From sequence record PZ019086.1: a DNA stretch of 64,000 nt. One strand, given 5' to 3'. The notes below the pieces were generated by a model. That model was not told where the DNA came from. It ran no database searches and saw nothing but the letters and a program-made list of their open reading frames with translations. The position numbers and the translations under genes were made by a program. Source of the DNA: a phage. Below, one piece after another: positions 11,765 to 47,055 of the stretch. Position 1 is the first letter of the stretch. The number at the start of each line of letters is the position of its first letter.

Positions 11765-12934
11765 TTAAAAATATTTTTTAAAACTCATCATAACTTTATC
11801 ATCAACATCATTATCAATCTGTGCTACAAGGTAAGATGACAGTTCTACTTCTTGTGGCGCGGATTGAACATTATCAGAATTAAGATATTCACGAATCCAA
11901 GGATACGGATGTTTAACCGGAGCATCAGTAATTGGGCATGGAAGACCGCACTGTTTCATACGAGATACAGTTAAGTAATCAATAAAGCTCCACATGCTAT
12001 TTGTATTTAATCCAGGAACATCGCCATCTTTAAATAAATGAACTGCCCAGTCTTTTTCTTGACGGTTAACTTCCATGAAAATATCAACTGCTTCTTGTTC
12101 ACACTCTTGGGCGATTTTAACCCATTCATCACCATCAGTGCCAAGTTGAAGTTGACGAATAATATATTGGGTGCCTTTAAGGTGAAGCTGCTCATCACGT
12201 GCAATAAACTTCATAATCTTGGCATTACCTTCCATGATTTCCATGTTCTTATGGAAGTTAAAGGTACATGCGAAAGATACATAAAAACGAATAGCTTCCA
12301 ATGCGTTGATTACATGCAAGCAGAGGTAAAGAGATTTCATTAGCGCTCGTTTAGTACATTCAACAACTTTGCCTAGCTCTTCTTTACGAAATCCTTCTGA
12401 TAAAATTCCTTCATAATCTTCAACCGCATTCTGGTATTCACGAGTCTTAACTAGAACATCATCGTAATAGCGACCAATGGACTCGGCACGTTTCATAATA
12501 GCTTTATCTAATACAATCTCATCAAACACCTTTGACGGATCAGTATAAAGATTTCGCATGATATGAGTATATGAACGACTGTGAATAGTTTCACTAAAAG
12601 TCCATGTAGCAACCCATGTATCAAGGCTTGGGTCTGAAATTAATGACATAAGTACAGCAGACGGTGCACGACCCTGAATGCTATCCAAAAGTGATTGATA
12701 CTTCAGGTTATTAGTAAAAATATCTTGCTGATATTGAGGAAGCTTGTTAAATTGTGCAGCATCCATCATTAAGTTTACTTCTTCAGGACGCCAGAAAAAT
12801 GACAACTGCTTTTCGGTTAAATCTTCAAAAACTTTATGACGTTGAATATCATAACGCGCAATACCAAGACCTGAACCGAAGAACATAGGTTCTTTTAAAA
12901 CATCAACTGGATTTGTATTAAAAACTGTAGACAT
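11765..12934 (-). CDS. nrdB: ribonucleotide reductase small subunit, uninterrupted
   Basis: 389 aa from MSTVFNTNPVD...; di-iron RNR R2 motifs; continuous ORF (no intron). Confidence 0.9.
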   Translation of the reverse strand: MSTVFNTNPVDVLKEPMFFGSGLGIARYDIQRHKVFEDLTEKQLSFFWRPEEVNLMMDAAQFNKLPQYQQDIFTNNLKYQSLLDSIQGRAPSAVLMSLISDPSLDTWVATWTFSETIHSRSYTHIMRNLYTDPSKVFDEIVLDKAIMKRAESIGRYYDDVLVKTREYQNAVEDYEGILSEGFRKEELGKVVECTKRALMKSLYLCLHVINALEAIRFYVSFACTFNFHKNMEIMEGNAKIMKFIARDEQLHLKGTQYIIRQLQLGTDGDEWVKIAQECEQEAVDIFMEVNRQEKDWAVHLFKDGDVPGLNTNSMWSFIDYLTVSRMKQCGLPCPITDAPVKHPYPWIREYLNSDNVQSAPQEVELSSYLVAQIDNDVDDKVMMSFKKYF

Positions 12935-13665
12935 CAATTTTTCCTCTTTAAAATTCTGCCGTGTTTCCAACCTGGCGGTATAATATCATCTTTACCTATA
13001 AGCGTGCATTCACTTCCATTATTAATCCATTTCTTACCGCGGATTCCTTTATAATCTCTTGGTTTTATTTTGTCAAACTTTGCATCAAGTTGATATGACC
13101 ATCTAAATCCATAAGCATATTGAAATTTACCCTCGGCACAATATTTGATATTTGACCCGTTTCCATTAACTGACCGGGACGCTGCTGCAATAGAGTGAAA
13201 AGTTTCTATGAAATCCCCATCTAATGAGAATTTATGTATTTCTACAGATGGGCACGCATATCTATTCACGTTAGATACATGTTGTTTAGTTTCGTTTTTA
13301 TGATGCTTACCTAGCATTCCTTTAGGATGAGGATTATTTTTCCAATATTTCTTAAAGAACTCAGAATTAGCTTTAGCAAATAATTTTCTGTGTAAGCTGT
13401 ACAATCTATTATTAATTCTATTGCCAGCTTTATCTGTTGCCATTAGCGTTAATGCAGAGGCAAGTCCAAAATGGCCTTCATTTATCTTACACAGTAATAG
13501 ATGTGCTATAAAATGTTCTCTAGCTGTTAATTCAACTAAATTTTCTTTATCATCAGAACCTCCCATGCATCTAGGGATTATATGATGTGTCTCTTTATAT
13601 TCTGATAAAGATTCCCGAGCCTGAGCTCGGGAAATTAGGTCGTTATAGATTTTTTGATAATTCAT
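12934..13665 (-). CDS. mobE: free-standing HNH homing endonuclease (MobE-like)
   Basis: H-H-I-I-P-R-C-M-G-G-S-D-D-K-E-N-L-V-E-L-T-A-R-E-H HNH motif, basic C-terminal DNA-binding region; between nrdA and nrdB as in T4. Confidence 0.7.
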   Translation of the reverse strand: MNYQKIYNDLISRAQARESLSEYKETHHIIPRCMGGSDDKENLVELTAREHFIAHLLLCKINEGHFGLASALTLMATDKAGNRINNRLYSLHRKLFAKANSEFFKKYWKNNPHPKGMLGKHHKNETKQHVSNVNRYACPSVEIHKFSLDGDFIETFHSIAAASRSVNGNGSNIKYCAEGKFQYAYGFRWSYQLDAKFDKIKPRDYKGIRGKKWINNGSECTLIGKDDIIPPGWKHGRILKRKN

Positions 13666-15929
13666 TATAATTTACACGCTGCGCAATCATCGGCTTTTGG
13701 AGCTTCTATTTCATAATCATCAGTACCAGAACCATCGCGGGTATTATGATAATAGAAATTTTTAATGCCATAATACCATCCGTATAGCATGTCATCAATC
13801 ATTATTGACATTGGAACCTTTCCTTTTGGAAAAATCTGTGGGTCATAATATGTATTCGCTGAAGCTGATTGACATACCCATTTCAGCATAATAGCTACTT
13901 GCGTAAGATAAGGTTTATTACCTTTCTTAGCTAATTTCCATGTATAATCATAGAGGTCTATGTTATGTTCAATATTGGGCACGACTTGATTAAAGGAACC
14001 CTCTTTTGATTCTTTAACAGAGACTGGTCCACGTGGAGGCTCGATACCGTTTGTACTGTTAGAAACTTGGGAAGATGACTCACATGGCATAAGTGCTGAT
14101 AATGTGCTATTACGGATGCCAAAGAGCTTAAGGTCTTCCCGCAGCGACGACCAGTCACAAACGTATTTTGGAGCTGCGATTTGGTCAATCTTTTTATTGT
14201 ACCAGTCGATAGGTAATTCGCCTCGAGACCAACGAGTGTCTGAATAATATTCGCAAGGTCCTTTTTCTTTGGCGAGCTTAATTGATGCTTTAATGAGTCC
14301 ATACTGCAATCTCTCAAATAGTTCATGTGTTAAATCGTTAGCATCTTCGTAAGAAGCAAAATTACTTGCTAGCCAAGCTGCATAGTTAGTAACACCTACG
14401 CCAAGGTTTCGACGTTTTTTAGCTTTTTCTGCTTCAGGAACTGGATATCCTTGGTAATCCAAAAGATTATCAAGAGCACGAACTTGGACTTCTGCCAATT
14501 CATTAATTTTATCTTGGTCTTGCCAATCAAAGTTATCTAACACAAATGCAGATAACGTACACAATCCAATTTCAGCATCAGGACTATTCACATCATTTGT
14601 TGGAATAGCAATTTCACAACACAAGTTACTCTGACGAATAGGTGCCTTTTCACGAATAAATGGCGTATAGTTATTCGTATTATCAATGAACTGTACATAA
14701 ATCCTTGCTGTTCCTGAGCGTTCAGTCATGAGCAATTCAAACAGTTCACGGGCTTTAATGCGCTTTTTACGAATATTAGGGTCTTTTTCTGCGGCTTCGT
14801 ATAATTCACGGAAACGGTCTTGGTCTTTAAAATAAGAATAATAAAGTTCGCCACCCATTTCATGTGGACTGAACAAAGTGATGTAATCATTCTTTCCGAA
14901 TCGTTCCATCATTAGGTCATTCAGTTGAACGCCATAATCCATATGACGGATACGGTTTTCTTCTACACCTTTGTTATTTTTCAAAACGAGAAGATTTTCA
15001 ACTTCCAAATGCCAAATAGGATAATAAGCAGTAGCAGCGCCGCCACGAATTCCACCCTGTGAACATGATTTAACAGCAGTTTGAAAATGTTTCCAAAAAG
15101 GAATAACACCAGTATGACGTACTTCACCTGTGCCAATCTTAGAACCTTCGGCACGAATCATACCAACGTTAATACCAATTCCAGCACGTTTGGAGATATA
15201 TTCAACAATTGAAGCGGAAGCCTTATTGATAGACTTTAATGAATCACCCGCCTCAATAACAACGCATGAACTAAACTGTCGAGTTGGAGTACGGCAACCA
15301 GCCATAATAGGAGTTGGCAATGAAATCTGTCGAGTAGATACTGCTTCATAAAAACGAATAACGTGTTTTAATCTATCAACAGGTTCATCTTGATGTAATG
15401 CCATTCCAATAGTCATAAATGCAAACTGCGGAGTTTCATAAATTTGACCAGTGGTTTTATCTTTAACTAGATATTTTTCTTTTAATTGCATCGCCCCGGA
15501 ATAAGTAAATTCCATATCCCGCTCATGCTTAATTTTTGATTCTAAAAATGTAATTTCTTCAGCAGAATATTTTGACAACAATTCAGGGTCATATTTACCT
15601 TCATTTACACAGTAAGAAATATGGTCAATAAATGAACGTGGTTCATATTGCCCGTAAACATGCTTACGAAGAGCAAACATTAAACACCGTGCAGCTACAT
15701 ATTGATAATCAGGCTCTTCAACTGAAATAGAATTCGCAGCAGCCTTAATGACAATAGTCTGAATGTCATCAGTTGTCATTCCATCACGGAGATATGATTT
15801 AATATTTTCATATAATTCATAAGGATCTACAGATGTTCCTTCAGCTGCCCAGGATAAAACTTTAATAATTTTTTGCGGGTCAAAGCTCTGAGAAACACCA
15901 CTACTTTTGATAACATTAATTAATTGCAT
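13665..15929 (-). CDS. nrdA: ribonucleotide reductase large subunit
   Basis: 754 aa; class Ia RNR alpha sequence. Confidence 0.95.
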   Translation of the reverse strand: MQLINVIKSSGVSQSFDPQKIIKVLSWAAEGTSVDPYELYENIKSYLRDGMTTDDIQTIVIKAAANSISVEEPDYQYVAARCLMFALRKHVYGQYEPRSFIDHISYCVNEGKYDPELLSKYSAEEITFLESKIKHERDMEFTYSGAMQLKEKYLVKDKTTGQIYETPQFAFMTIGMALHQDEPVDRLKHVIRFYEAVSTRQISLPTPIMAGCRTPTRQFSSCVVIEAGDSLKSINKASASIVEYISKRAGIGINVGMIRAEGSKIGTGEVRHTGVIPFWKHFQTAVKSCSQGGIRGGAATAYYPIWHLEVENLLVLKNNKGVEENRIRHMDYGVQLNDLMMERFGKNDYITLFSPHEMGGELYYSYFKDQDRFRELYEAAEKDPNIRKKRIKARELFELLMTERSGTARIYVQFIDNTNNYTPFIREKAPIRQSNLCCEIAIPTNDVNSPDAEIGLCTLSAFVLDNFDWQDQDKINELAEVQVRALDNLLDYQGYPVPEAEKAKKRRNLGVGVTNYAAWLASNFASYEDANDLTHELFERLQYGLIKASIKLAKEKGPCEYYSDTRWSRGELPIDWYNKKIDQIAAPKYVCDWSSLREDLKLFGIRNSTLSALMPCESSSQVSNSTNGIEPPRGPVSVKESKEGSFNQVVPNIEHNIDLYDYTWKLAKKGNKPYLTQVAIMLKWVCQSASANTYYDPQIFPKGKVPMSIMIDDMLYGWYYGIKNFYYHNTRDGSGTDDYEIEAPKADDCAACKL

Positions 15930-16486: not shown

Positions 16487-17347
16487 TTACACCGCCATCT
16501 TTCCTTTAATTGGCGGGTGAGATACATAGTTGTTAAGAACAAAATTATGCGGCTTTGCGAATTGACTCAACCAAAATACCTGCGATTCTGTGTCCCATTC
16601 ATCAAATTCATCTGGAAATTTTAATTGTAATTCGCATAAATCCATAGGTTCACGACGCAAAATTTCTTTACATTGTTCTACGTGATTCATATAGATATGA
16701 GTATTACCACCAGAAAATATCAAATCTCCAGGAATAAGATTACACATCTTAGCTACAATATGAACTAACGCAGCATATGATGCAATGTTGAATGGCAAGC
16801 CCAAGAACACGTCAACACTTCTTTGATACCACTGCAAATCCAAATAGCCATTACGCACATTAAACTGATAGAACATATGACAAGGCGGTAATGCCATATA
16901 TTTAAGTTCAGCTGGATTCCATGCAGAAACAATTTGTCGCCTATCATTTGGTAGTTTTTTAATACGATCAATAACTTCTACAATTTGGTCTACACCACCA
17001 AAATCACGCCACTGTTTTCCATAAATTGGACCAAGTTCACCACTATGATATCCTAAATCTTTTGCTTGATTTTCGTAATTTTCATCCCAGACTGTTTTGC
17101 CTTGAATTAATGAATCATGTTGAATTAATCGTAAATCATTTACATTTGTGCTTCCCGATAAAAACCATATTAGCTCAGCAATGCAAGCTTTCCAGGCGAG
17201 CTTCTTAGTCGTTACTGCAGGAAAACCTTTAGTTAAATCCCAGCGTAATTTAGTACCGAACAAAGCAATTGTTCCTATGCCTGTTCGGTCATCGGTTTCA
17301 TAGCCATTTTCAAAAATGTCTTTAATTAAATCTTGGTATTGTTTCAT
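16487..17347 (-). CDS. td: thymidylate synthase, uninterrupted
   Basis: 286 aa continuous ORF with full ThyA sequence (…ALPPCHMFYQF…); no intron. Confidence 0.95.
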   Translation of the reverse strand: MKQYQDLIKDIFENGYETDDRTGIGTIALFGTKLRWDLTKGFPAVTTKKLAWKACIAELIWFLSGSTNVNDLRLIQHDSLIQGKTVWDENYENQAKDLGYHSGELGPIYGKQWRDFGGVDQIVEVIDRIKKLPNDRRQIVSAWNPAELKYMALPPCHMFYQFNVRNGYLDLQWYQRSVDVFLGLPFNIASYAALVHIVAKMCNLIPGDLIFSGGNTHIYMNHVEQCKEILRREPMDLCELQLKFPDEFDEWDTESQVFWLSQFAKPHNFVLNNYVSHPPIKGKMAV

Positions 17348-23555: not shown

Positions 23556-26500
23556 ATGGCCGAGATTAAAAGAAAGTTCAGAGCAGAAGATGGTCTGGAC
23601 GCAGGTGGCGATAAAATAATCAACGTAGCTTTAGCTGATCGTGCCGTAGGAACTGACGGTGTTAACGTTGATTACCTAATTCAAGAAAACACAGTTCAAC
23701 AATACGATCCAACTCGTGGATATTTAAAAGATTTTGTAATCATTTATGATAACCGCTTTTGGGCTGCTATAAATGATATTCCAAAACCGGCAGGAGCTTT
23801 TAATAGCGGACGCTGGAGAGCATTACGTACCGATGCTAACTGGATTACAGTCTCATCTGGTTCATATCAATTAAAATCTGGTGAAGCTATTTCGGTTAAC
23901 ACTGCAGCTGGTAATGATATTACATTTACTTTACCATCTACTCCAATTGACGGTGATACTATCGTTCTCCAAGATATTGGAGGAAAACCTGGAGTTAACC
24001 AAGTTTTAATTGTAGCTCCAGTGCAAAGTATTGTAAACTTCAGAGGCGAGCAAGTACGTTCAGTACTAATGACTCATCCAAAGTCACAGTTAGTTTTAAT
24101 TTTTAGTAATCGTCTGTGGCAAATGTATGTAGCTGATTATAGTAGAGAAGCTGTAGTTGTAACACCAGCGAATACTTATCAAGCGCAATCTAACGATTTT
24201 ATCGTACGTAGATTTACTTCTGCTGCACCGATAAATATTAAACTTCCGAGATTTGCTAATCACGGCGATATTATTAATTTCGTCGATTTGGATAAATTAA
24301 ATCCTCTTTATCATACAATTGTTACTACATACGATGAAACTACTTCAGTACAAGAAGATGGAACTCATTCTATTGAAGGCCGTACATCTATTGATGGCTT
24401 TTTAATGTATGATGATAATGAAAAATTGTGGAGATTGTTTGACGGGGATAATAAAGCACGTTTACGTATTATAACAACTAATTCAAATATTCGTCCAAAT
24501 GAAGAAGTTATGGTATTTGGTGCGAATAACGGAACAGCTCAGACAATTGAGCTTAAGCTTCCAACTAATATTTCTGTTGGTGATACTGTTAAAATTTCCA
24601 TGAATTACATGAGAAAAGGACAAACAGTTAAAATCAAAGCTGCCGGTGAAGATAAAATTGCTTCTTCAGTTCAATTGCTGCAATTCCCAAAACGTTCAGA
24701 GTATCCACCTGAAGCTGAATGGGTGACTGTCCAAGAATTAGTTTTTAACGGTGAAACTAATTATGTTCCAGTTTTACAACTTGCTTATATAGAAGATTCT
24801 GATGGAAAATACTGGGTTGTACAACAAAACGTTCCAACCGTAGAAAGAGTTGATTCTTTAAACGATTCTACTAGAGCAAGATTAGGCGTGATTGCTTTAG
24901 CTACACAAGCGCAAGCTAATGTCGATTTAGAAAATTCTCCACAAAAAGAATTAGCAATTACTCCAGAAACATTAGCTAACCGTACTGCTACAGAAACTCG
25001 TAGAGGTATCGCGAGAATAGCAACCACTGCTCAAGTAAATCAGAACACCACATTCTCTTTTGCTGATGATATTATCATTACACCTAAAAAGCTGAATGAA
25101 AGAACTGCTACAGAAACTCGTAGAGGTGTTGCTGAAATTGCTACGCAACAGGAAACTAATGCAGGTACTGATGATACTACAATCATCACTCCTAAAAAGC
25201 TTCAAGCTCGTCAGGGTTCTGAATCATTATCTGGTATTGTAACCTTTGTATCTACTGCAGGAGCTACTCCAGCCTCTAGTCGTGAATTAAATGGTACAAA
25301 CGTTTATAATAAAAACACTAATAATTTAGTCGTTTCGCCTAAAGCTTTGGATCAGTATAAAGCTACTCCAACACAACAGGGTGCAGTAATTTTAGCAGTT
25401 GAAAGTGAAGTAATTGCTGGACAGAGTCAAGAAGGATGGGCAAATGCGGTTGTAACGCCAGAAACGTTACATAAAAAGACATCAACTGATGGAAGAATTG
25501 GTTTAATTGAAATTGCTACACAAAGTGAAGTTAATACAGGAACTGATTATACTCGTGCAGTCACTCCTAAAACTTTAAATGACCGTAAAGCAACTGAAAG
25601 TTTAAGTGGTATAGCTGAAATTGCTACACAAGTTGAATTCGACGCAGGCGTCGACGATACTCGTATCTCTACACCATTAAAAATTAAAACTAGATTTAAT
25701 AGTACTGATCGTACTTCTGTTGTTGCTCTATCTGGATTAGTTGAATCAGGAACTCTCTGGGACCATTATACCCTTAATATTCTTGAAGCAAATGAGACAC
25801 AGCGTGGTACACTTCGTGTAGCTACACAAGTTGAAGCTGCTGCAGGAACATTGGATAATGTTTTAATAACTCCTAAAAAGCTTTTAGGTACTAAATCTAC
25901 TGAAGCACAGGAAGGTGTTATTAAAGTTGCAACTCAGTCTGAAACTGTGACTGGAACGTCAGCAAATACTGCTGTATCTCCAAAAAATTTAAAATGGATT
26001 GTGCAGAGTGAACCTACTTGGGCAGCTACTACTGCGATAAGAGGCTTTGTTAAAACTTCATCCGGTTCAATTACATTCGTTGGTAATGATACAGTTGGTT
26101 CAACACAGAACTTAGAGCTATACGAGAAAAATAGCTATGCAGTATCACCGTATGAATTAAACCGTGTATTAGCAAATTACTTGCCATTAAAAGCAAAAGC
26201 TGCTGACACGAATTTATTGGATGGCCTAGATTCATCTCAGTTCATTCGTAGGGACATTGCACAGACGGTTAATGGTTCACTAACCTTAACCAAACAAACG
26301 AATCTGAGTGCCCCTCTTGTATCATCTAGTACTGCTACGTTTGGTGGTTCAGTTTCGGCAAATAGTACATTAACTATTTCTAACTCTGGAACAGCAACTC
26401 GTCTGATTTTTGAGAAAGGACCTCAAACTGGAACTAACCCAGCGCAGACGATGACTATCAGAGTTTGGGGAAATCAGTTCGGTGGCGGTTCAGATACAAC

Positions 26501-27425
26501 ACGTTCTACTGTATTTGAGGTTGGCGATGAAACGTCTAATCACTTTTATTCTCAACGCAATAAAGCTGGGAATATAACGTTTAGTATCAATGGTACTGTA
26601 ATGCCAATAAATGTCAATGCTTCGGGTTCTTTGAATGCGAATGGCGTTGCAACATTCGGTAGTTCAGTTACAGCCAATGGTGAATTCATCAGCAAGTCTG
26701 CAAATGCTTTCAGAACAATAAATGGCGACTATGGATTCTTTATTCGTAATGATGCTGCTAACACCTATTTTATGCTTACTGCATCGGGTGATCAGACTGG
26801 CGGATTTAATGGATTACGTCCTTTAGCTATTAACAATGCATCTGGTCAAGTAACGATGGGTGAAGGCTTAATCGTTGCCAAAGGTGTTACTATAAACTCA
26901 GGTGGCTTAACTGTTAACTCGAGAATTCGTTCTCAGGGCATTAAAACATCTGACTTATATACCCGTGCGCCAACATCTGATACCGTAGGATTCTGGTCAA
27001 TTGACATTAATGATTCAGCTACTTATAACCAATTCCCGGGTTATTTTAAAATGGTTGAAAAAACTAATGAAGTGACTGGACTTCCATACTTAGAACGTGG
27101 AGAAGAGGTTAAATCTCCTGGTACATTAACTCAGTTTGGTAACACACTTGATTCGCTTTACCAAGATTGGATTACTTATCCAACGACTCCAGAAGCGCGC
27201 ACCACGCGCTGGACGCGTACATGGCAGAAAACCAAAAACTCTTGGTCAAGTTTTGTTCAGGTATTTGATGGGGGTAACCCTCCTCAGCCATCTGATATCG
27301 GTGCTTTACCATCTGATAATGCTATAATGGGGAATCTTACTATTCGTGATTTCTTACGAATTGGTAATGTTCGCATTATTCCTGACCCAGTGAATAAATC
27401 TGTTAAATTTGAATGGATTGAATAA
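23556..27425 (+). CDS. 34: gp34 proximal long tail fiber subunit
   Basis: 1289 aa; T4 gp34 length and N-terminus; internal tandem TATETRRG...ITPKKL repeats. Confidence 0.95.
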   Translation: MAEIKRKFRAEDGLDAGGDKIINVALADRAVGTDGVNVDYLIQENTVQQYDPTRGYLKDFVIIYDNRFWAAINDIPKPAGAFNSGRWRALRTDANWITVSSGSYQLKSGEAISVNTAAGNDITFTLPSTPIDGDTIVLQDIGGKPGVNQVLIVAPVQSIVNFRGEQVRSVLMTHPKSQLVLIFSNRLWQMYVADYSREAVVVTPANTYQAQSNDFIVRRFTSAAPINIKLPRFANHGDIINFVDLDKLNPLYHTIVTTYDETTSVQEDGTHSIEGRTSIDGFLMYDDNEKLWRLFDGDNKARLRIITTNSNIRPNEEVMVFGANNGTAQTIELKLPTNISVGDTVKISMNYMRKGQTVKIKAAGEDKIASSVQLLQFPKRSEYPPEAEWVTVQELVFNGETNYVPVLQLAYIEDSDGKYWVVQQNVPTVERVDSLNDSTRARLGVIALATQAQANVDLENSPQKELAITPETLANRTATETRRGIARIATTAQVNQNTTFSFADDIIITPKKLNERTATETRRGVAEIATQQETNAGTDDTTIITPKKLQARQGSESLSGIVTFVSTAGATPASSRELNGTNVYNKNTNNLVVSPKALDQYKATPTQQGAVILAVESEVIAGQSQEGWANAVVTPETLHKKTSTDGRIGLIEIATQSEVNTGTDYTRAVTPKTLNDRKATESLSGIAEIATQVEFDAGVDDTRISTPLKIKTRFNSTDRTSVVALSGLVESGTLWDHYTLNILEANETQRGTLRVATQVEAAAGTLDNVLITPKKLLGTKSTEAQEGVIKVATQSETVTGTSANTAVSPKNLKWIVQSEPTWAATTAIRGFVKTSSGSITFVGNDTVGSTQNLELYEKNSYAVSPYELNRVLANYLPLKAKAADTNLLDGLDSSQFIRRDIAQTVNGSLTLTKQTNLSAPLVSSSTATFGGSVSANSTLTISNSGTATRLIFEKGPQTGTNPAQTMTIRVWGNQFGGGSDTTRSTVFEVGDETSNHFYSQRNKAGNITFSINGTVMPINVNASGSLNANGVATFGSSVTANGEFISKSANAFRTINGDYGFFIRNDAANTYFMLTASGDQTGGFNGLRPLAINNASGQVTMGEGLIVAKGVTINSGGLTVNSRIRSQGIKTSDLYTRAPTSDTVGFWSIDINDSATYNQFPGYFKMVEKTNEVTGLPYLERGEEVKSPGTLTQFGNTLDSLYQDWITYPTTPEARTTRWTRTWQKTKNSWSSFVQVFDGGNPPQPSDIGALPSDNAIMGNLTIRDFLRIGNVRIIPDPVNKSVKFEWIE
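24978..25121 (+). repeat. direct repeat inside gene 34 (two perfect 24-bp copies 120 bp apart)
   Basis: actgctacagaaactcgtagaggt occurs at about 24978 and 25098, encoding repeated T-A-T-E-T-R-R-G. Confidence 0.6.
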
Positions 27426-27433
27426 GAGGTATT

Positions 27434-28549
27434 ATGGAAAAATTTATGGCAGAGTTTGGACAAGGATATGTCCAAACGCCATTTTTATCGGAAAGTAATT
27501 CAGTAAGATATAAAATAAGTATAGCGGGTTCTTGCCCGCTTTCTACGGCAGGACCATACGTTAAATTTCAGGATAATCCTGTTGGAAGTCAAACATTTAG
27601 CGCAGGTCTTCATCTAAGAGTTTTTGACCCTTCCACCGGAGCATTAGTTGATAGTAAGTCATATGCTTTTTCGACTTCAAATGATACTACATCAGCTGCT
27701 TTTGTTAGTTTCATGAATTCTTTGGCGAATAACAGACTTGTTGCTATATTAACTAGTGGAAAGGTTAATTTTCCTCCTGAAGTAGTATCTTGGCTAAGAG
27801 CCGCAGGAACGTCTGCTTTTCCATCTGATTCTATATTGTCAAGATTCGACGTATCATATGCTGCTTTTTACACTTCTTCTAAAAGAGCTATTGCATTAGA
27901 GCATGTTAAACTGAGCAACAGAAAAAGCACAGATGACTATCAAACTATTTTAGATGTGGTGTTTGACAGTTTAGAAGACGTCGGAGCTACGGGATTTCCT
28001 AAAAGAACATACGAAAGTGTTGATCAATTTATGTCGGCAGTTGGCGGAACTAATAACGAAATTGCGCGTCTACCAACTTCAGCTGCTATAAGTAAATTAT
28101 CTGACTATAATTTAATCCCTGGCGATGTTCTTTATCTTAAAGCACAGTTATATGCCGATGCCGATTTACTTGCGCTTGGAACTACAAATATATCTATCCG
28201 TTTTTATAATGCATCGAATGGATATATTTCCTCGACACAAGCTGAGTTTACCGGGCAAGCTGGGTCTTGGGAATTAAAAGAAGATTATGCGGTTGTTCCA
28301 GAAAACGCTGTCGGATTTACGATATATGCACAAAGAACAGCACAAGCTGGTCAAGGTGGCATGAGAAGTTTAAGCTTTTCTGAAGTGTCAAGAAATGGAG
28401 GTATTTCGAAACCCGCTGAATTTGGCGTCAATGGCATTCGTGTTAATTATATCTGTGAATCTGCTTCACCTCCGGATATAATGGTACTTCCTACGCAAGC
28501 ATCGTCTAAAACTGGTAAAGTGTTTGGGCAAGAATTTAGAGAAGTTTAA
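27434..28549 (+). CDS. 35: gp35 tail fiber hinge
   Basis: 371 aa following gene 34 with AGAGG Shine-Dalgarno. Confidence 0.9.
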   Translation: MEKFMAEFGQGYVQTPFLSESNSVRYKISIAGSCPLSTAGPYVKFQDNPVGSQTFSAGLHLRVFDPSTGALVDSKSYAFSTSNDTTSAAFVSFMNSLANNRLVAILTSGKVNFPPEVVSWLRAAGTSAFPSDSILSRFDVSYAAFYTSSKRAIALEHVKLSNRKSTDDYQTILDVVFDSLEDVGATGFPKRTYESVDQFMSAVGGTNNEIARLPTSAAISKLSDYNLIPGDVLYLKAQLYADADLLALGTTNISIRFYNASNGYISSTQAEFTGQAGSWELKEDYAVVPENAVGFTIYAQRTAQAGQGGMRSLSFSEVSRNGGISKPAEFGVNGIRVNYICESASPPDIMVLPTQASSKTGKVFGQEFREV

Positions 28550-28554
28550 ATTGA

Positions 28555-28572
28555 GGGAGCCTTCGGGTTCCC
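28555..28572 (+). terminator. UUCG-tetraloop hairpin between 35 and 36
   Basis: GGGAGCC-TTCG-GGTTCCC followed by TTTTTCTTT. Confidence 0.55.
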
Positions 28573-28580
28573 TTTTTCTT

Positions 28581-28588
28581 TATAAATA
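28581..28588 (+). promoter_or_regulatory. late promoter TATAAATA for gene 36
   Basis: exact TATAAATA 24 nt upstream of the gene 36 ATG. Confidence 0.7.
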
Positions 28589-28611: not shown

Positions 28612-29274
28612 ATGGCTGATTTAAAAGTAGGTTCAACAACCGGAGGCTCTGTCATTTGGCATCAAGGAAATTTTCCATTGAATCCAGCCGGTGACGATGT
28701 ACTCTATAAATCATTTAAAATATATTCGGAATACAATAAACCACAAGCTGCTGATAACGATTTCGTTTCTAAAGCTAATGGTGGTACTTACGCCGCGACT
28801 GTTCGATTTAATGGAGGCGTACATGTTCCTACTATAGGTAGTAGTCAACAGTGTGGCGTTTATCCAGGCAACGGTGATGCAGCTACTTTTGCTATGGCAA
28901 ATATTGACATCGTTTCGTGGAATGGTATCGGTTTTAAATCATCGCAGGGTTCAGCAGACCGAACTGTTGTAATTAATGCACGTAATGGTGATATTAGTAC
29001 AAAAGGCGTCGTGACAGCAGTAGGTCAAATAAGAAGTAATGCAGTTTCTCCTGTAGCAGCTAATGACCTTACTAGAAAAGACTATGTTGATGGAGCAATA
29101 AATACTGTTACGGCAAATGCGAACTCTAGAGTGTTACGATCTGGTGACACTATGACGGGTAATTTAACCGCACCAAACTTTTTCTCGCAGAATCCTGCAT
29201 CTCAACCTTCACACGTTCCACGATTTGACCAAATCGTAATTAAGGATTCTGTTCAAGATTTCGGCTATTATTAA
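28612..29274 (+). CDS. 36: gp36 distal tail fiber connector
   Basis: 220 aa. Confidence 0.9.
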
Positions 29275-29282
29275 GAGGACTT

Positions 29283-32200
29283 ATGGCTACTTTAAAACAA
29301 ATACAATTTAAAAGAAGCAAAACCGCAGGTGCACGTCCTGCTGCTTCAGTATTAGCCGAAGGTGAATTGGCTATAAACTTAAAAGATAGAACAATTTTTA
29401 CTAAAGACGATTCAGGAAATATCATTGATCTGGGTTTTGCTAAAGGCGGGCAAGTTGATGGAAATGTAACTATTAATGGTCTTTTGAGGTTAAACGGTGA
29501 TTATGTACAAACTGGTGGAATGACTGTAAATGGACCTATTGGTTCTACTGATGGCATAGCTGCAAAAGTTTTCAGATCTACACAAGGTTCATTTTATACA
29601 AGAGCCTCAAATGATACTTCCAATGCCCATCTTTGGTTTGAAAATGCCGATGGCACTGAACGAGGCGTTATATATGCTCGTACTCAAACTACAACTAACG
29701 GTGAAATACGCCTTAGGGTTAGACAAGGAACAGGAAGCACTACTAATAGTGAATTCTATTTCCGTTCTATAAACGGCGGCGAATTTCAAGCTAACCGTAT
29801 TTTGGCATCAGATTCGTTAGTAACTAAACGCATTGCGGTTGATACTGTTATTCATGATGCCAAAGCCTTTGGACAATATGATTCTCAATCTTTGGTCAAC
29901 TATGTTTATCCTGGAACCGGTGAAACAAACGGTATAAACTATCTTCGTAAAGTTCGAGCTAAATCAGGTGGTACAATTTATCATGAAATTTGTACTGCCC
30001 AATTAGGGCTGGCTGATGAAGTTTCTTGGTGGACTGGTAATACACCATTATTTAGATTATATGGTATTCGTAATGACGGCCGAATGATCGTCCGCAATAG
30101 CGTAGCCATCGGGACTGTGACTGCAGGATACCCGGCAAGCGATTATGGAAGTACCGGGGTAATGGGAGATAAGTATCTTGTTCTCGGTGACATTGTAACT
30201 GGTCTGAAATATATTAAACAAGGTGTTTATGATTTAGTTGGTGGGGGTTATTCAGTTGCTTCTATTACTCCAGATAGTTTCCGTAGCACCCGTAAAGGTA
30301 TATTTGGACGTTCAGAAGACCAAGGCGCTACATGGATTATGCCTGGAACCAACGCCGCTCTTTTATCAGTTCAAACACAAGCTGATAATAACAATGCTGG
30401 AGACGGACAAACCCATATTGGGTACAATGCTGGCGGTAAAATGAACCACTATTTCCGTGGTACAGGACAGATGAATATCAATACCCAACGAGGTATGAAA
30501 GTTAACCCTGGTATTTTGAAATTGGTAACTGGCTCTAATAACGTACAGTTTTATGCTAATGGAACAGTATCTTCAATACAAAGAATTAAATTTGATAACG
30601 GATTAGTTCTTACTGGTGCTAGACCTGACGGTATTCAACTTGACGCTCCTACATCAGCAGATGGCACTAAAACTATACTGTGGGCTGGTGGTACTCGCGC
30701 AGGTCAGAATAAAAGTTATGTATCTATTAAAGCGTGGGGTAATTCATTTAACGCATCTGGTGACCGTAATCGTGAAACAGTTTTTGAAGTAGCTGACGGG
30801 CAGGGATATTATTTTTATGCACAACGCACTACTCCTGCATCAGGTCAAACAGTAGGTCCGGTTAACTTTAAATTTAACGGAACTGTCGAAACAGGCCATA
30901 TCATAGGCCTTGGAAATATAAGTGCCTCTGGTACAGGTTCTTTTGGTGGCAATGTTACCATGTCTAATGGTTTGTTTGTCCAAGGTGGTTCTTCTATTAC
31001 TGGCCAAGTTAAAATCGGCGAAACTGGCGACGCATTAAGAATTTGGAATGCCGAATATGGTGCTATTTTCCGCCGTTCAGAAAGTAGCCTTTATATTATC
31101 CCGACTCCTAAAGATGCCGGAGAATCGGGTGGTATAAGTAATCTTAGACCATTTAGAATAGAACTGGACACCGGCACAGTTAAAATGTCGCATGATGTTC
31201 ATTTAGGAGATTCTGGATCCGGTACAGGATTATTACAAGTAAGTAATAGTCTTAAAACTATTAAAATGATATGTCCAGTAACTATTAATGAACGTAATGC
31301 AGCGCTTACTCTAGATTCTCCTTCATCTTCTTCTGCTAATTATTTACAAGGTTCTAAAGCTGGAATTAGATCGTGGTATGTTGGTCTTGGTGGCGCTGGA
31401 AGTGATTTATCGCTTTATAGTCAATCTTATGGACACGGTCTTGTTATAAGCGATAATTTCGTGTCAATCAGTAAACCTCTTAAAGTCGGAAATGCCCAAC
31501 TAGGAACTGACGGTAATATTACTAGCGGTTCAGGAAACTTTGCTAACTTAAACACCACGCTAAATCGTAAAGTTAATTCTGGATTTATTACTTATGGAGC
31601 AACTGCTGGATGGTATAAGTTTGCAACAGTAACAATGCCACAATCCACTTCTACGGTCTTCTTTAAAATAGCCGGTGGTTCTGGATTTAATAGTGGATTA
31701 TTCACACAATGCAATATTGCTGAAATTGTTTTACGTACTAGTAATGAAAGACCTGCTGACTTAAATGCTGTATTATACACAAGAACAATTGCAGCTGCAT
31801 TTAAAAATATTGCAGTTAATAACGTCTCTGGAGATACATATGACATTTATGTTTATGCCGGAACATATTGCAATCAATTAACTTGTGAATGGTCATGTAC
31901 CGAAAATGCTACTGTTAGCGTTATTGGTATTAACTCATCGACCCAATCACCTGTGGATGCTCTTCCAGATACAGCAGTTGATGGGCAAGTTGCTAATGTT
32001 CTTAATAACTTGGTTGATCGTGGTAAAGTTAAGCGTTATGAAGCTGATTCTGAAATAGCTATCAATAGTCAAACTGGTATTCGTATTAGAAGCAATGGCG
32101 ATAAAACTGGTTCTGTTGCTACAATGCTACGAAATGATGGCGGTAGTTTTTATATTCTATTTACAGATAAAAATGCCACCGATGGCGCAGCAACCGTTAA

Positions 32201-33008
32201 TGGTGATTGGAATAGTAAACGTCCTTTTGCAATTAACTTAACAACTGGCGAAGTGCTAATGAATAACGGCATAGCTGTTCGCAGCGCAGCTTTATTCTAT
32301 AATAGTATAAATGTCAAAGATAATGGTTCTATTAACTTTGATAAGTCTGGTGCTAACCCAAGAAATATGAGAATATTTCATGCTGGCGATGCTTCTCGTG
32401 GTAACCGTATTGAAATTGCAGATGAAACTAACTATATTGCTTACTTTGAAAAAGCTCCAGGTGGAGCTAACCGCTTTGTAGTAAATAATGCTACTGTAGC
32501 TGGTGTTAACCAAATGAATTCATTTGGTATTAATATCAATAACGCACTTGGTGGAAATAGTATAGCATTTGGTGATAATGACACTGGAATTAAACAATCC
32601 GGCGACGGACTTCTTGATATTATTACTAACGCCGCACGCCGAATGAGATTCCAGACGGGTGACACTTATTCTGACATGAATATAAATGCTCCAAACGTTT
32701 ATATTCGTTCTGATATTCGTTTGAAATCTAATTTCAGACCTATTGAAAATGCTCTTGAAAAGGTTGAACAGCTTGATGGTTTAATCTATGATAAAGCTGA
32801 CTATATAGGTGGTGAAATTGTTCAGACTGAAGCGGGTATTGTGGCTCAAACACTACAAGACGTTTTACCAGAAGCAGTTCGTGAAGTTGAAGATATTAAG
32901 GGTAATAAAATACTCACTGTTTCTTCTCAATCCCAGATTGCTCTTCTAGTTGAAGCTGTGAAAACACTTTCTTCTCGTGTAAAAGAACTTGAATCTAAAC
33001 TTATGTAA
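29283..33008 (+). CDS. 37: gp37 distal long tail fiber with C-terminal intramolecular chaperone-like domain
   Basis: 1241 aa; N-terminus [13 protein letters not shown]... as in T4 gp37; C-terminal ...[10 protein letters not shown]... then ~90 aa resembling peptidase S74 chaperone module. Confidence 0.9.
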
Positions 33009-33010
33009 AA

Positions 33011-33026
33011 GAGGGCTTCGGCCCTC
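33011..33026 (+). terminator. UUCG-tetraloop hairpin after gene 37
   Basis: GAGGGC-TTCG-GCCCTC then T-rich. Confidence 0.5.
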
Positions 33027-33038
33027 TAAGGATTTTTA

Positions 33039-33824
33039 ATGGCAATTGTAGGTGTTCCTGGCTGGATTGGTGAATCTGCCGTGAATGAAACTGGACAACG
33101 TTGGATGGATGCTGCAATGAAAGCAGTTCGTGTTTCAGTTCCTGGTTGGATGAGCTCAATGGCCGGACAATCTAAAGAAGTATATTACAGCATTGGTGCT
33201 AGCAATTCTTATAATAAAGACACACTAATAAATTGGATAAAAGCCCAAGGAAGTACTCCTGTTGTTATTACAATTACAGGCAATATCGTTTCTTCATCGA
33301 CAGGTCAACCATGCTTAGATTTTCCTAGCTCATTAACTAATGCATACGTGACACTTAATATCAATTCAGGTGTGCATGTTTGGGGTCGCGGCGGGAATGG
33401 TGGAAATAACTCTGCCGGTGGAGCAGGAGGAACTGCAATAAATAACGGAATTGGAACTAGATTACGTATTAACAACAACGGTGTTATCGCAGGCGGTGGC
33501 GGCGGCGGAGGAGGCGGATACTACTCTCCTTTTTCACAAATGAGATTGACTTTTGGCGGAGGAGGCGGGCGTCCATTTGGCGCTGCTGGCGGCTCTGCTA
33601 ATATGGAACGAGGTGCTACCGCTGGTACTATTTCTGCACCCGGTAAAGGGTCTGTAAACGGTGTCTACAATGGCGGAAACGGTGGTGATGCTGGTGCCGC
33701 AGGAGGTAGATGTAATATTCGTGGTCAAGGATCAGAATATAACGGCGGTGCGGCTGGTAAAGCTGTTACTGGTAATGCTCCAACTTGGACTAAAGTTGGT
33801 ACAATATATGGTGCAAGAGTATAA
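33039..33824 (+). CDS. 38: gp38 T2-type receptor adhesin with glycine-rich motifs
   Basis: 261 aa; N-terminus MAIVGVPGWIGESAVNETGQRWM...; poly-Gly runs (GGGGGGGGGYY, FGGGGGRPF). Confidence 0.85.
   Translation: MAIVGVPGWIGESAVNETGQRWMDAAMKAVRVSVPGWMSSMAGQSKEVYYSIGASNSYNKDTLINWIKAQGSTPVVITITGNIVSSSTGQPCLDFPSSLTNAYVTLNINSGVHVWGRGGNGGNNSAGGAGGTAINNGIGTRLRINNNGVIAGGGGGGGGGYYSPFSQMRLTFGGGGGRPFGAAGGSANMERGATAGTISAPGKGSVNGVYNGGNGGDAGAAGGRCNIRGQGSEYNGGAAGKAVTGNAPTWTKVGTIYGARV
33484..33512 (+). repeat. (GGN)n codon run in gene 38
   Basis: ggcggtggcggcggcggaggaggcgga encoding nine consecutive Gly. Confidence 0.6.
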
Positions 33825-33855
33825 TTTTGAATAAATATCCTTAAAAGGAGGGTCT

Positions 33856-34512
33856 ATGGCAGCACCTAGAATATCATTTTCGCCCTCTGATATTCTGTTG
33901 GGTGTTCTAGATCGCTTGTTCAAAGATAACGCTACCGGGAAGGTTCTTGCTTCCCGGGTAGCTGTCGTAATTCTTTTGTTTATAATGGCGATTGTTTGGT
34001 ATAGGGGAGATAGTTTCTTTGAGTACTATAAGCAATCAAAGTATGAAACATACAGTGAAATTATTGAAAAGGAAAGAAATGCACGCTTTGAATCTGTCGC
34101 CCTGGAACAACTCCAGATAGTTCACATATCATCTGAGGCAGACTTTAGTGCGGTGTATTCTTTCCGCCCTAAAAACTTAAACTATTTTGTTGATATTATA
34201 GCATATGAAGGAAAATTACCTTCAACAATAAGTGAAAAATCACTTGGAGGATATCCTGTTGATAAAACTATGGATGAATATACAGTTCATTTAAATGGAC
34301 GTCATTATTATTCCAACTCAAAATTTGCTTTTTTACCGACTAAAAAGCCTACTCCCGAAATAAATTACATGTACAGTTGTCCATATTTCAATTTGGATAA
34401 TATCTATGCTGGAACAATAACCATGTACTGGTATAGAAATGATCATATAAGTAATGACCGCCTTGAATCAATATGTTCTCAGGCGGCCAGAATATTAGGA
34501 AGGGCTAAATAA
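33856..34512 (+). CDS. t: holin
   Basis: 218 aa; matches T4 T holin (single N-terminal TM, large periplasmic domain). Confidence 0.9.
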   Translation: MAAPRISFSPSDILLGVLDRLFKDNATGKVLASRVAVVILLFIMAIVWYRGDSFFEYYKQSKYETYSEIIEKERNARFESVALEQLQIVHISSEADFSAVYSFRPKNLNYFVDIIAYEGKLPSTISEKSLGGYPVDKTMDEYTVHLNGRHYYSNSKFAFLPTKKPTPEINYMYSCPYFNLDNIYAGTITMYWYRNDHISNDRLESICSQAARILGRAK

Positions 34513-45205: not shown

Positions 45206-45235
45206 ATTATACCACATCCTTGTGGTAAAGTAAAC
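45206..45235 (-). promoter_or_regulatory. early promoter for the rIIA operon
   Basis: GTTTAC -35 (plus gtaaac 45230-45235), spacer hairpin CCACA-agga-TGTGG, TATAAT -10. Confidence 0.5.
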
Positions 45236-47055
45236 TATTGGCTCATCCATTCTTTACGAAGGTCAGCATTATCTCCCATGAGCATTTCAAAAAGCTCTTT
45301 CCAGTTCTCAGGAAGTTTAACAACATCATATACTGGGTTTTGAATCATCTCACGATATTCAGATTTTTCCAAAGAGCCAAGTCCCTTAATATAACGGATG
45401 CTATGTTTAGGTAGAGCATCTTTGGCACTCTCATATTCAGCGACTGTATAAAACCATTCTTGTTTTTTACCGACCTGAGCGATGATTACAGGAGTTTTGA
45501 CAAAGCGAATTCTTCCTTGTTCAAACAGTTCTGGCCAATTACTAAAAAATCCGAGCAGAGAAGGATAAATGCTTCCTAGACCATCATGGTCAGCATCGGT
45601 CATAATAGCAATATTATGATAATTCAAGTTTTCAGCCTTTTCACCAAGAACTAATCCAGTGATTGCGCAAATATCAAACAGTTCTTTGTTTTTAAGCATA
45701 TCAGCATATGACATACCCCAACTGTTGAGAACTTTACCACGTAATGGATAACCGCCATGAAGTTCTTTATCACGAACATCAATAAGATATCCGATAGCAG
45801 AATCACCCTCAGTCAAGAAAAGAGTAGTGTCAGCGTCTTTACCGCAAAGATTCGCTTTAATATGTTTATGAACCTTAGCTTTAGAAGCCTTTTTAGCTGC
45901 TTTAGTTTCTGCTGCCTTTTCTGCCGCCAATTTACGAGCCAAAGCAGCTTCAATAATTGGCATTAAAATTGCTTCATTATTTAAAATAGCACGTGAAATC
46001 TTTTTAGCATCAAGCTGAATATGACTACGAATTTCACCAAATGGAGAAGTCAAACGCTCTTTAGTCTGAGAATCAAATCGCATGTTTTTCATATCACGAA
46101 CAAACATAACGATAGTCAAACATTCTTTAACCCGTGCTTTAGTTACATCAATTTTGAACTTACGTTTGATTTGTGGAATAAGGTCTTCACAAATATCATC
46201 CATAACGCAGTCAATGTGATGGCCGCCATTCTTAGTATGAATGTTATTAACGTATGTTAATTGACGAAAACCATCCGGTGAACGACCAATCGCAATAGAA
46301 CAATTTTCTTGTTCTTGAACGATAGCATGCTCATCATATTGGCGTGCGTATTTCTTAAAATTGCCCTGAACCTTTTTACCATTAAAGGTAAATTGAATAT
46401 CAGGATAAACTACTGCAAGTGTCTGGAGACGATCTAGCGTAATGTCAAGATAAACTTGAGATAGCTCATTAGTTTCAAATGACATAAAATCAGGAATGAA
46501 AGTAACACGTGTTCCTTTCCATTTTCCAGGAATAGTTTCCCATGATTTATTTTCCATGCCATTTGAACAACGAACTACAATATTATTTTGACCGTCGCCA
46601 GTTTCACCGACAAACGTCACAGAAAAAATGTTAGTTAAACTAGAACCAACACCGTTCATACCACCAGTGACGCGTTCTTTGTCATCACCGAAGTTACCAC
46701 CTGCCTTTGGAATAGTCCAGGCAGCAACAGGACCAGGAATTTCTTCACCAGTAGGTGTTTTAACCATCGCTTGCGGAATACCACGACCGTTATCTTCAAC
46801 TGTTACTTGATTGTTTTTAATGGTAACATTAATTTTATTTGCGAATTTAAACTTAGTACGAATACCTTCATCTACTGAGTTATCGATAATTTCATCAATA
46901 AGCTTAACAAGACCAGGTACATACTGAACACTTTCCCATTTACCAAACAGAAAGCGCTCATGCATTTCATTAGCAGAAGAGCCAATATACATGCCGCTAC
47001 GCTTTTTGATATGTTCAATATCGCTCAGAATTTTAATTTCATTCTTAATCATCAC
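45235..47055 (-). CDS. 39: DNA topoisomerase II large (ATPase) subunit, single fused ORF
   Basis: 606 aa continuous; GyrB-like ATPase and TOPRIM regions in one ORF (T4 splits this into 39 and 60). Confidence 0.95.
   Translation of the reverse strand: MMIKNEIKILSDIEHIKKRSGMYIGSSANEMHERFLFGKWESVQYVPGLVKLIDEIIDNSVDEGIRTKFKFANKINVTIKNNQVTVEDNGRGIPQAMVKTPTGEEIPGPVAAWTIPKAGGNFGDDKERVTGGMNGVGSSLTNIFSVTFVGETGDGQNNIVVRCSNGMENKSWETIPGKWKGTRVTFIPDFMSFETNELSQVYLDITLDRLQTLAVVYPDIQFTFNGKKVQGNFKKYARQYDEHAIVQEQENCSIAIGRSPDGFRQLTYVNNIHTKNGGHHIDCVMDDICEDLIPQIKRKFKIDVTKARVKECLTIVMFVRDMKNMRFDSQTKERLTSPFGEIRSHIQLDAKKISRAILNNEAILMPIIEAALARKLAAEKAAETKAAKKASKAKVHKHIKANLCGKDADTTLFLTEGDSAIGYLIDVRDKELHGGYPLRGKVLNSWGMSYADMLKNKELFDICAITGLVLGEKAENLNYHNIAIMTDADHDGLGSIYPSLLGFFSNWPELFEQGRIRFVKTPVIIAQVGKKQEWFYTVAEYESAKDALPKHSIRYIKGLGSLEKSEYREMIQNPVYDVVKLPENWKELFEMLMGDNADLRKEWMSQ

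Follow-up and report, generated by a model that had tools for sequence, protein, structure and literature searches.

The stretch of phage DNA studied here, 64,000 nucleotides from sequence record PZ019086.1 (hereafter the window), carries the genes for a long tail fibre, and our subject is the distal end of that fibre as encoded by genes 37 and 38 at positions 29283 to 33824. We find it very probable that this locus specifies the standard distal tip of a Tequatrovirus long tail fibre, of the type known from T2, K3 and S16, in which gp37 is cleaved at an S74 domain, gp38 forms the cap, the gp38 loops are of the Tsx type and the whole is a patchwork assembled by recombination. An earlier note on this DNA had proposed a T2-type tip, with an S74-ended gp37 and a glycine-rich gp38 in place of the T4 assembly chaperone, and the domain matches, the homology with S16, the SDIRLK segment and the absence of similarity to T4 all bear this out. 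The alignment of gp37 and gp38 with T2, T6 and other T-even homologues, suggested there as a check, was run and confirms the T2-type arrangement, and none of the analyses run yielded evidence contradicting that architecture. Where the note went astray was in treating a T2 cassette in a T4-like backbone as notable, for most of the genus is of the T2 type and T4 belongs to the minority: T4 is described as having the less common tip type of the genus (Dunne and Leiman, PMC6851490), and a gp38 homologue is present in 765 phage records. What is new here is only the combination of alleles of known segments; the tip system itself was already known.

The C-terminus of gp37 and its predicted cleavage

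Gene 37 (29283 to 33008, plus strand) encodes the distal subunit of the long tail fibre (PHROG 1699; Pfam gp37_trimer), and our open reading frame (ORF) call agrees exactly with the length of 1241 amino acids and the coordinates given for it before. The chaperone-like end of about 100 residues that had been noticed in the protein proves to be a match to the full Peptidase_S74 model within the last 99 residues (PF13884 at residues 1143–1200, model positions 1–58 of 58, E=1.2e-13, 51.6 bits; the Pfam cut-off is 22 bits for this family and 25 bits each for the families GP38 and Gp38_N discussed below). The SDIRLK segment likewise lies where an autocleavage site had been proposed: it occupies residues 1143–1148 (32709 to 32726, plus strand), starts at position 1 of the Peptidase_S74 model and aligns with the mapped site SDRRIK of S16. 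In the match between the gp37 C-terminus and the S16 gp37 structure (6F45_A, E=3.2e-10), SDIRLKSN stands opposite SDRRIKKD. Our alignments show the segment unchanged in T2, K3, RB18, NR1 and FriedrichMiescher and as SDSRLK in T6, and they show the S74 domain to be absent from T4 gp37. T2 and K3 also have a near-identical C-terminus.

The serine at the first position of the domain and the lysine five residues on, S1143 and K1148, have the spacing of the catalytic pair in endoNF and MyRF, where the Ser/Lys(+5) dyad has been proven by mutagenesis (S911/K916 and S587/K592, respectively) and the cut falls just N-terminal to the serine (PMC8326128). In S16 gp37 the last 113 residues autocleave at DLNVS^SDRRIKK after trimerisation, baring the surface on which gp38 docks (PMC7917993, citing Dunne 2018), and the gp37 proteins of T2 and T6 are cleaved according to Trojet et al., whose references include Drexler 1986 on T2 gp37 processing (PMC3157838). 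We predict a dyad of S1143 and K1148 and a cut at NVYIR^SDIRLKS, between R1142 and S1143. Unprocessed gp37 has a mass of about 132.5 kDa; the predicted cut would leave a mature protein of residues 1–1142 (29283 to 32708, plus strand; computed mass 121.6 kDa) and free a 10.9-kDa fragment, the intramolecular chaperone (ICA, of the Peptidase_S74 family) of residues 1143–1241, which is encoded together with the stop codon at 32709 to 33008 on the plus strand. The new C-terminus of the mature chain, ...NAPNVYIR, is the predicted docking tip for gp38. In the sequence of events that we propose, the 99-residue chaperone at the C-terminus of gp37 would assist the protein in folding into a trimeric beta-helical fibre, the Ser1143/Lys1148 dyad would cut each chain at R1142/S1143 once the trimer is correctly folded, and the departure of the chaperone would bare the ...NVYIR tip.

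Two points weigh against this reading of the protein. A phmmer search with the isolated 109-residue gp37 C-terminus returned no endosialidase or T5 chaperone structure, only S16 gp37 and a weak match to the MyRF ICA structure (7DC3, E=0.014, on the GIVAQ..LPEAV motif), and with no direct endosialidase match the link to the family rests on the Pfam model and on the S16 and MyRF alignments. Furthermore, the cleavage of gp37 and the incorporation of gp38 are both read across to this phage from close homologues, namely T2, S16, Bas39 and T6.

gp38 as the tip adhesin

The product of gene 38 (33039 to 33824, plus strand) had been described as a glycine-rich T2-type protein of 261 amino acids, and the ORF, the Pfam matches and the S16 structure agree on this, making it a monomeric tip adhesin of the T2/S16 type (PHROG 2056, with the PHROGs label 'tail fiber protein; host specificity'). 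Gp38_N (PF21721) matches residues 1–42 with 64.8 bits (E=7.2e-18) and GP38 (PF05268) matches residues 47–261 with 239.7 bits (E=4.2e-71). The S16 gp38 structure (6F45_D) aligns over residues 8–259 with E=8.9e-49, and a second structure, 9v85, described in its annotation as GFP fused to 'Receptor-recognizing protein gp38', matches with E=7.6e-32. Glycine makes up 60 of the 261 residues (23%), including a run of nine at residues 152–160 and one of five at residues 173–177; the latter, encoded by (GGN)5 at 33555 to 33569 on the plus strand, belongs to a GGGGGRP motif that is 100% conserved in all five adhesin references.

The protein divides into an N-terminal attachment domain and a C-terminal part in which conserved glycine-rich motifs (GRMs) are set between variable loops, the hypervariable segments (HVS), whose identities are given by segment below. 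The attachment domain (residues 1–45; 33039 to 33173, plus strand) includes the Gp38_N match and is 96–100% identical to those of T2 and RB18; its residues W9, W22 and W37 align with tryptophans of S16 gp38, and three gp38 tryptophans are known to plug the adhesin into gp37 (PMC6851490). The specificity region (residues 113–235; 33375 to 33743, plus strand), where glycine-rich motifs alternate with hypervariable loops, is of the T6/Tsx type. On the model of S16, one gp38 monomer would dock on the bared gp37 tip through its N-terminal three-helix domain, with W9, W22 and W37 entering three symmetry-related pockets of gp37, and the C-terminal part would form a polyglycine-II sandwich of glycine-rich motifs, leaving the hypervariable loops between them to touch the receptor. 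That gp38 sits at the fibre tip and sets host range is experimentally established for homologues (PMC12032242, PMC3157838, PMC6851490).

Annotation has not always kept pace with this. Many public records, among them those of RB18, T6, teqhal, teqsoen and SA20RB, still label the adhesin gene 38 'distal long tail fiber assembly catalyst' or 'tail assembly protein', names that describe what the T4 protein does and have been transferred to one unrelated to it.

Prediction of the receptor

Over its full length gp38 is 98.1% identical to that of NR1 (5 differences) and 96.9% identical to that of FriedrichMiescher (Bas39; 8 differences), with RB18 (84.7%), T2 (66.8%) and T6 (64.8%) further off. Broken down by segment, residues 1–45 are 100%, 96% and 67% identical to RB18, T2 and T6, respectively, and residues 46–112 are 97%, 64% and 31% identical; the corresponding values are 50%, 0% and 92% for HVS2, 62%, 35% and 76% for HVS3, and 25%, 25% and 92% for HVS4. 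By these identities the N-terminal part of gp38 is nearest to RB18, the attachment domain being close to T2 as well, and the specificity loops are T6-like.

From loops of the T6/FriedrichMiescher type we predict that the primary receptor is probably Tsx, the nucleoside channel of E. coli: both Bas39 and T6, the classical Tsx phage, use it, the former as its experimentally determined primary receptor (BASEL supplementary table) and the latter according to PMC3157838. Trojet et al. found one HVS set common to nearly all Tsx-binding gp38s (PMC3157838), and Lutz et al. 2025 found that gp38 phylogeny predicts the receptor, close gp38s recognising the same one (PMC12032242).

A receptor other than Tsx, or one in addition to it (OmpA, OmpF, FadL, OmpC or lipopolysaccharide), reached through loop substitutions within the same architecture, is unlikely but is the alternative that survives best. 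Four of the eight differences from Bas39 fall in variable loops (R169K in HVS2, R191Q and V209I in HVS3, R224K in HVS4), and HVS2 has S166 where T6 has P166. Two or three HVS changes can be enough for a T6-type adhesin to take in OmpA or Yersinia as well (Trojet et al., PMC3157838), and phage PST, which differs from T6 at a few residues of HVS2 and HVS3, has gained the use of OmpA (PMC3157838); the N-terminal two-fifths of gp38, moreover, resembles T2 and RB18 rather than T6. These observations tell against Tsx as the only receptor, but three of the four loop substitutions are conservative (R/K or V/I, R191Q being the exception), the window residues R169 and R224 are the same as in T6, the identity to T6 in all three loops is as high as given above, and adhesin phylogeny is a good predictor of the receptor (PMC12032242). 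A more specific version of the idea seems to us less likely still, namely that the loop substitutions (S166 relative to T6; R169, R191, V209 and R224 relative to Bas39 and/or NR1) might redirect the adhesin away from Tsx or widen its range of receptors, with OmpA or a host other than E. coli as the possible gain, as in PST, perhaps helped by a new shaft that combines a T4/K3-like proximal gp37 with the less common SA20RB-type allele of tip and chaperone. If true, point changes on a reshuffled fibre would here have extended the host range in nature.

Mosaic structure of genes 36 to 38

Tsx remains the preferred receptor, and the patchwork on which the adhesin sits can be followed by measuring gp37 identity to the reference phages in bins of 50 amino acids. 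Residues 1–50 are conserved in every reference. Residues 51–400 are T4-like, and from about residue 100 also K3-like, so that the N-terminal 400 residues or so are 70–100% identical to T4 per bin and 86% identical in nucleotide sequence. There follow a T2-like segment (residues 401–500, 94–96%), an NR1-like segment (residues 501–600, 94–96%) and a long segment like K3, FriedrichMiescher, NR1 and RB18 (residues 651–1100, 84–100%). At residues 1101–1241 the identity to these last four phages, which are themselves nearly identical to one another there, is only 76–93%; the segment is 99.2% identical in nucleotide sequence to vB_EcoM_SA20RB and 95–98% to REP4, slur07 and others. Read from these bins, gp37 is a new patchwork of known T4/K3-, T2-, NR1-, K3- and SA20RB-like segments, and two allele classes of docking tip and chaperone circulate, one in T2, K3, RB18, NR1 and Bas39 and the other, to which the window belongs, in SA20RB, REP4 and slur07.

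The two classes are about 76–82% identical in amino acid sequence (window positions 32556–32955, gp37 residues ~1101–1225). The stretch before the cleavage site also differs between them, DIYANSVQVFRFQNGDLYSYK being one of the two forms.

In nucleotide sequence, the variable zone opens at about 28756, within gene 36, and closes at about 33755, shortly before gene 38 ends, with identity breakpoints at about 28756, 29356, 30556, 30756, 30956, 32556, 32956 and 33756. Since identity drops at 28756, the zone begins within gene 36 and not in gene 37. Two conserved islands lie within it, one at the 36/37 junction (29156–29355) and the other reaching from the last part of gene 37 across the spacer into the start of gene 38 (32956–33155); the latter, together with the gp38 N-terminal domain, is 96–100% conserved beside the divergent tip alleles. 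Such islands have been proposed as sites of homologous exchange by Tetart and Trojet (PMC3157838), and on that model the locus would evolve by homologous recombination at the 36/37 junction, at the island of gene 37 3' end, spacer and gene 38 5' end, and at the 3' end of gene 38. The record with the highest coverage of the gene 37–38 stretch, RB18, reaches 88% at 86% identity, while FriedrichMiescher covers 80% at 92% identity, and neither an identical gp37 nor an identical gp38 was found in a collection of 15 billion proteins. With both exact tip proteins unmatched and no record covering more than 88%, the locus is a new mosaic and, mapped by segment, a further case of modules exchanged at the conserved islands of the fibre locus.

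Gene 36 is itself mosaic: positions 28756–28955 are 98% identical to NR1 and 52–81% identical to T6, T2, T4, RB18 and FriedrichMiescher.

Hairpins and the late promoter

Two hairpins had been described as bounding the cassette, at 28555–28572 and 33011–33026. Both are real and stable, and their coordinates need correction by only 1–2 nucleotides, but they do not bound the cassette; they bracket genes 36 and 37. The first, a terminator-like hairpin with a CUUCGG tetraloop and a T-run in the spacer between genes 35 and 36 (28553 to 28574, plus strand; -15.1 kcal/mol, z=-3.47; terminator scan), is conserved in T4, T2, T6, RB18, NR1 and FriedrichMiescher. Close behind it, 5' of gene 36, the T4 late-promoter consensus TATAAATA (28581 to 28588, plus strand; found by pattern match) is conserved in all six references and probably acts as a late promoter, going by established T4 biology. 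As T4, T2, T6, RB18, NR1 and Bas39 all conserve the entire spacer, the hairpin is best read as a transcription-unit boundary of the backbone, unrelated to the type of tip.

The second hairpin, AGAGGGCUUCGGCCCUCU, again with a CUUCGG tetraloop (33010 to 33027, plus strand; -13.4 kcal/mol, z=-2.98), lies in the spacer between genes 37 and 38, directly 5' of the gene 38 Shine-Dalgarno sequence AAGGA (33028–33032), and is identical in K3, T2, RB18, NR1 and FriedrichMiescher. In the K3 record of 1987 it is annotated as a stem-loop that is a potential terminator and overlaps a possible ribosome-binding site of gene 38. No T-run follows directly after the stem, which makes a terminator function doubtful; a role in RNA stability or translational coupling is more likely than termination. 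Since no Rfam family reached its gathering threshold in the 64-kb window, neither hairpin is tied to any structured RNA family.

That the hairpins are recombination or transcription boundaries of a mobile host-range cassette is very improbable. Besides the reality and stability of both structures, what speaks for it is that the 37/38 hairpin lies inside the 96–100% conserved island at 32956–33155 with divergent flanks, where homologous exchange is possible. The first hairpin, however, stands 5' of gene 36, is followed by the late promoter and is kept in T4, which has the other type of tip; the second separates genes 37 and 38 and is thus internal to the supposed cassette; and all the identity breakpoints fall in coding sequence, none of them at a hairpin.

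In the spacer between gene 38 and gene t (33825–33855), the late-promoter consensus TATAAATA of T4 is replaced in the window by AATAAATA, a non-consensus form found also in T2, T6, RB18, NR1 and Bas39. In T2-type phages, transcripts that start at the gene 36 late promoter and read through may thus matter more for gene t.

The polyglycine tract

The run of nine glycine codons in gene 38 had been placed at 33484–33512 and put forward as a slippage hotspot, and neither statement stands. The tract, (GGN)9, encodes Gly152–Gly160 at 33492 to 33518 on the plus strand (repeat scan and translation), a long polyglycine-II helix motif whose equivalent in S16 gp38 is helix 3, 151-GGGGGGGG-158 (PMC6851490). 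It would be a contingency locus if slippage altered the number of glycines or the reading frame and so switched host range, an idea to which we give hardly any weight. Tandem Repeats Finder (TRF) does report a period-3 array of 8.7 copies (33492–33517, 82% matches), but with a score of only 31, and the codons are mixed (GGC GGT GGC GGC GGC GGA GGA GGC GGA), the longest perfect repeat being (GGC)3; in an array of period 3, moreover, slippage by whole units cannot shift the frame. The window, NR1, FriedrichMiescher and T6 all have exactly nine glycines although their third codon positions vary, and this constancy indicates purifying selection on what would be a structural polyglycine-II helix.

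Recombination is a separate matter. Glycine-rich motifs have been proposed as recombination points (PMC12032242; PMC3157838), and in the few genomes compared gp38 switches from RB18-like to T6-like around residues 106–165, a range that spans the first glycine-rich motifs. The position of the switch is weakly suggestive of recombination at these motifs.

Relation to T4 and to other known tips

That the arrangement is instead of the T4 type, with gp37 carrying the receptor tip and the 261-residue protein serving only as an assembly chaperone absent from the virion, can be dismissed for practical purposes, for although the records of RB18, T6 and teqhal give its homologues the catalyst label (taken over from T4) and gp37 is T4-like over some 400 N-terminal residues to the extent given above, a global alignment with T4 gp38 (183 amino acids) pairs 3 residues with 0 identical, the last ~240 residues of gp37 (bins 1001–1241) are 0–8% identical per bin to T4, which is without the S74 domain, gp38 matches both the adhesin family and an adhesin of known structure, with E values of 1e-49 to 1e-71, and the T4 RefSeq record itself states that in the T2 subfamily an unrelated 'gp38' is the adhesin.

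The standard T2/K3/S16-type tip has well-studied relatives with which the locus can be compared. The nearest full-length gp37 is that of K3 (GenBank X04747; Riede, Drexler, Henning et al., 1980s), with 1243 against 1241 amino acids and 82.8% identity. It has in common with the window the T4-like proximal part, SDIRLK, the type of C-terminal domain and an identical 37/38 spacer with its hairpin, but K3 uses OmpA (PMC3157838) and the gp38 of the window is of the Tsx type. A further difference is that residues 401–650 and 1101–1241 of the window gp37 come from T2-, NR1- and SA20RB-like lineages.

T2 has been the prototype of C-terminal processing of gp37 with a gp38 adhesin since 1986. Its gene order, its S74 domain with SDIRLK and its gp38 attachment domain (96% identical) are those of the window, but its gp37 is longer (1341 amino acids, 60% identical overall), its gp38 is 66.8% identical, and its HVS2, HVS3 and HVS4 are unrelated (0%, 35% and 25%); T2 binds FadL/OmpF (PMC3157838). 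NR1 and Bas39 come closest in gp38 (98.1% and 96.9%), with a T6-like HVS set, but their gp37 proteins are only 75.8–79.3% identical and in the first ~400 residues are unrelated in places (8–30% per bin). The gp37 of T6 has 994 amino acids and is 33% identical.

For structure, the closest guide is the S16 tip complex (gp37)3-gp38 (PDB 6F45; Dunne et al. 2018), with which both window proteins align over nearly all of the crystallised parts and in which the cleavage motif, the three docking tryptophans, the long polyglycine helix and GGGGGRP are conserved. S16 is of another genus-level lineage, its identity is well below that of the coliphage references, and it releases 113 residues as against the predicted 99; going by a title cited in PMC7917993, its receptor is Salmonella OmpC. 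The ICA domains of endoNF and MyRF open with the Ser/Lys(+5) dyad and have GxxAQ..LPEAV and a C-terminal helix predicted to form a trimeric coiled coil, as here, but the passenger in the window is a T-even fibre shaft and not a sialidase or a transcription factor, and cleavage would here create a docking site for a second protein.

Knowledge of the tip mechanism goes back to the 1980s and that of its structure to 2018, and the arrangement is the norm among T-even phages, which leaves the locus with little import for basic biology. Its yield is practical: an adhesin annotation for gp38, a predicted cut at R1142^S1143, a predicted mature gp37 of 121.6 kDa and the prediction of Tsx as receptor, all of them useful should the phage become a candidate for therapy or for host-range engineering.

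The fibre genes and their flanks

The ORF calls place genes 34, 35, 36, 37, 38 and t in one direction on the plus strand. Gene 34 (23556 to 27425), identified by Gp34_trimer and Gp34_2nd in Pfam, encodes the proximal long-tail-fibre subunit of 1289 amino acids, which is 92.6–97.6% identical to its counterparts in FriedrichMiescher, RB18, NR1, T6, T4 and T2. Gene 35 (27434 to 28549) encodes the hinge connector of 371 amino acids (96–98% identical to gp35 of T4, T2 and T6), and gene 36 (28612 to 29274) the distal hinge or short distal subunit of 220 amino acids (Phage_T4_gp36, E=4e-38), 99.1% identical to NR1 and 69–92% to the other references. T4 lengths had been claimed for all three proteins; this is exact for gp34 (1289 in both), but gp35 and gp36 have 371 and 220 residues against 372 and 221 in T4. 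Beyond gene 38 lies the holin gene t (33856 to 34512; 218 amino acids; Phage_holin_T, E=8e-118), whose product is 96.8–98.6% identical to all references; by this measure gene t is the conserved right-hand flank of the variable region. The order of gene 37 with its S74 end, gene 38 and holin gene t is a synteny common to T2, T6, RB18, NR1 and Bas39. The flanking 18.5 kb and 24.5 kb are 95–97% identical to hundreds of Tequatrovirus genomes, and by sequence comparison the backbone is of the ordinary T-even type.

Elsewhere in the window

A scan of the whole 64-kb window found no tRNA genes, which places the T-even tRNA cluster outside it. A group I intron was likewise not found in the 64 kb by the Rfam scan at gathering threshold. 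Both nrdB (11765 to 12970, minus strand) and a 286-amino-acid ORF in the position of td (16487 to 17347, minus strand; its identity as td rests on that position and on the annotation of matching genomes) are uninterrupted, and the td and nrdB introns of T4 appear to be absent.

In T4 the large subunit of topoisomerase II is split into genes 39 and 60, with a 50-nucleotide translational bypass. A 606-amino-acid ORF of the window (45235 to 47055, minus strand) with HATPase_c, DNA_gyraseB and TOPRIM_C domains is an unsplit large subunit, and this phage appears to be without the T4-style split. Between nrdA (13665 to 15929) and nrdB, finally, a 243-amino-acid ORF (12934 to 13665, minus strand) with NUMOD1 and weak HNH matches looks, from its domains, like a free-standing homing endonuclease, in the position of mobE in T4.

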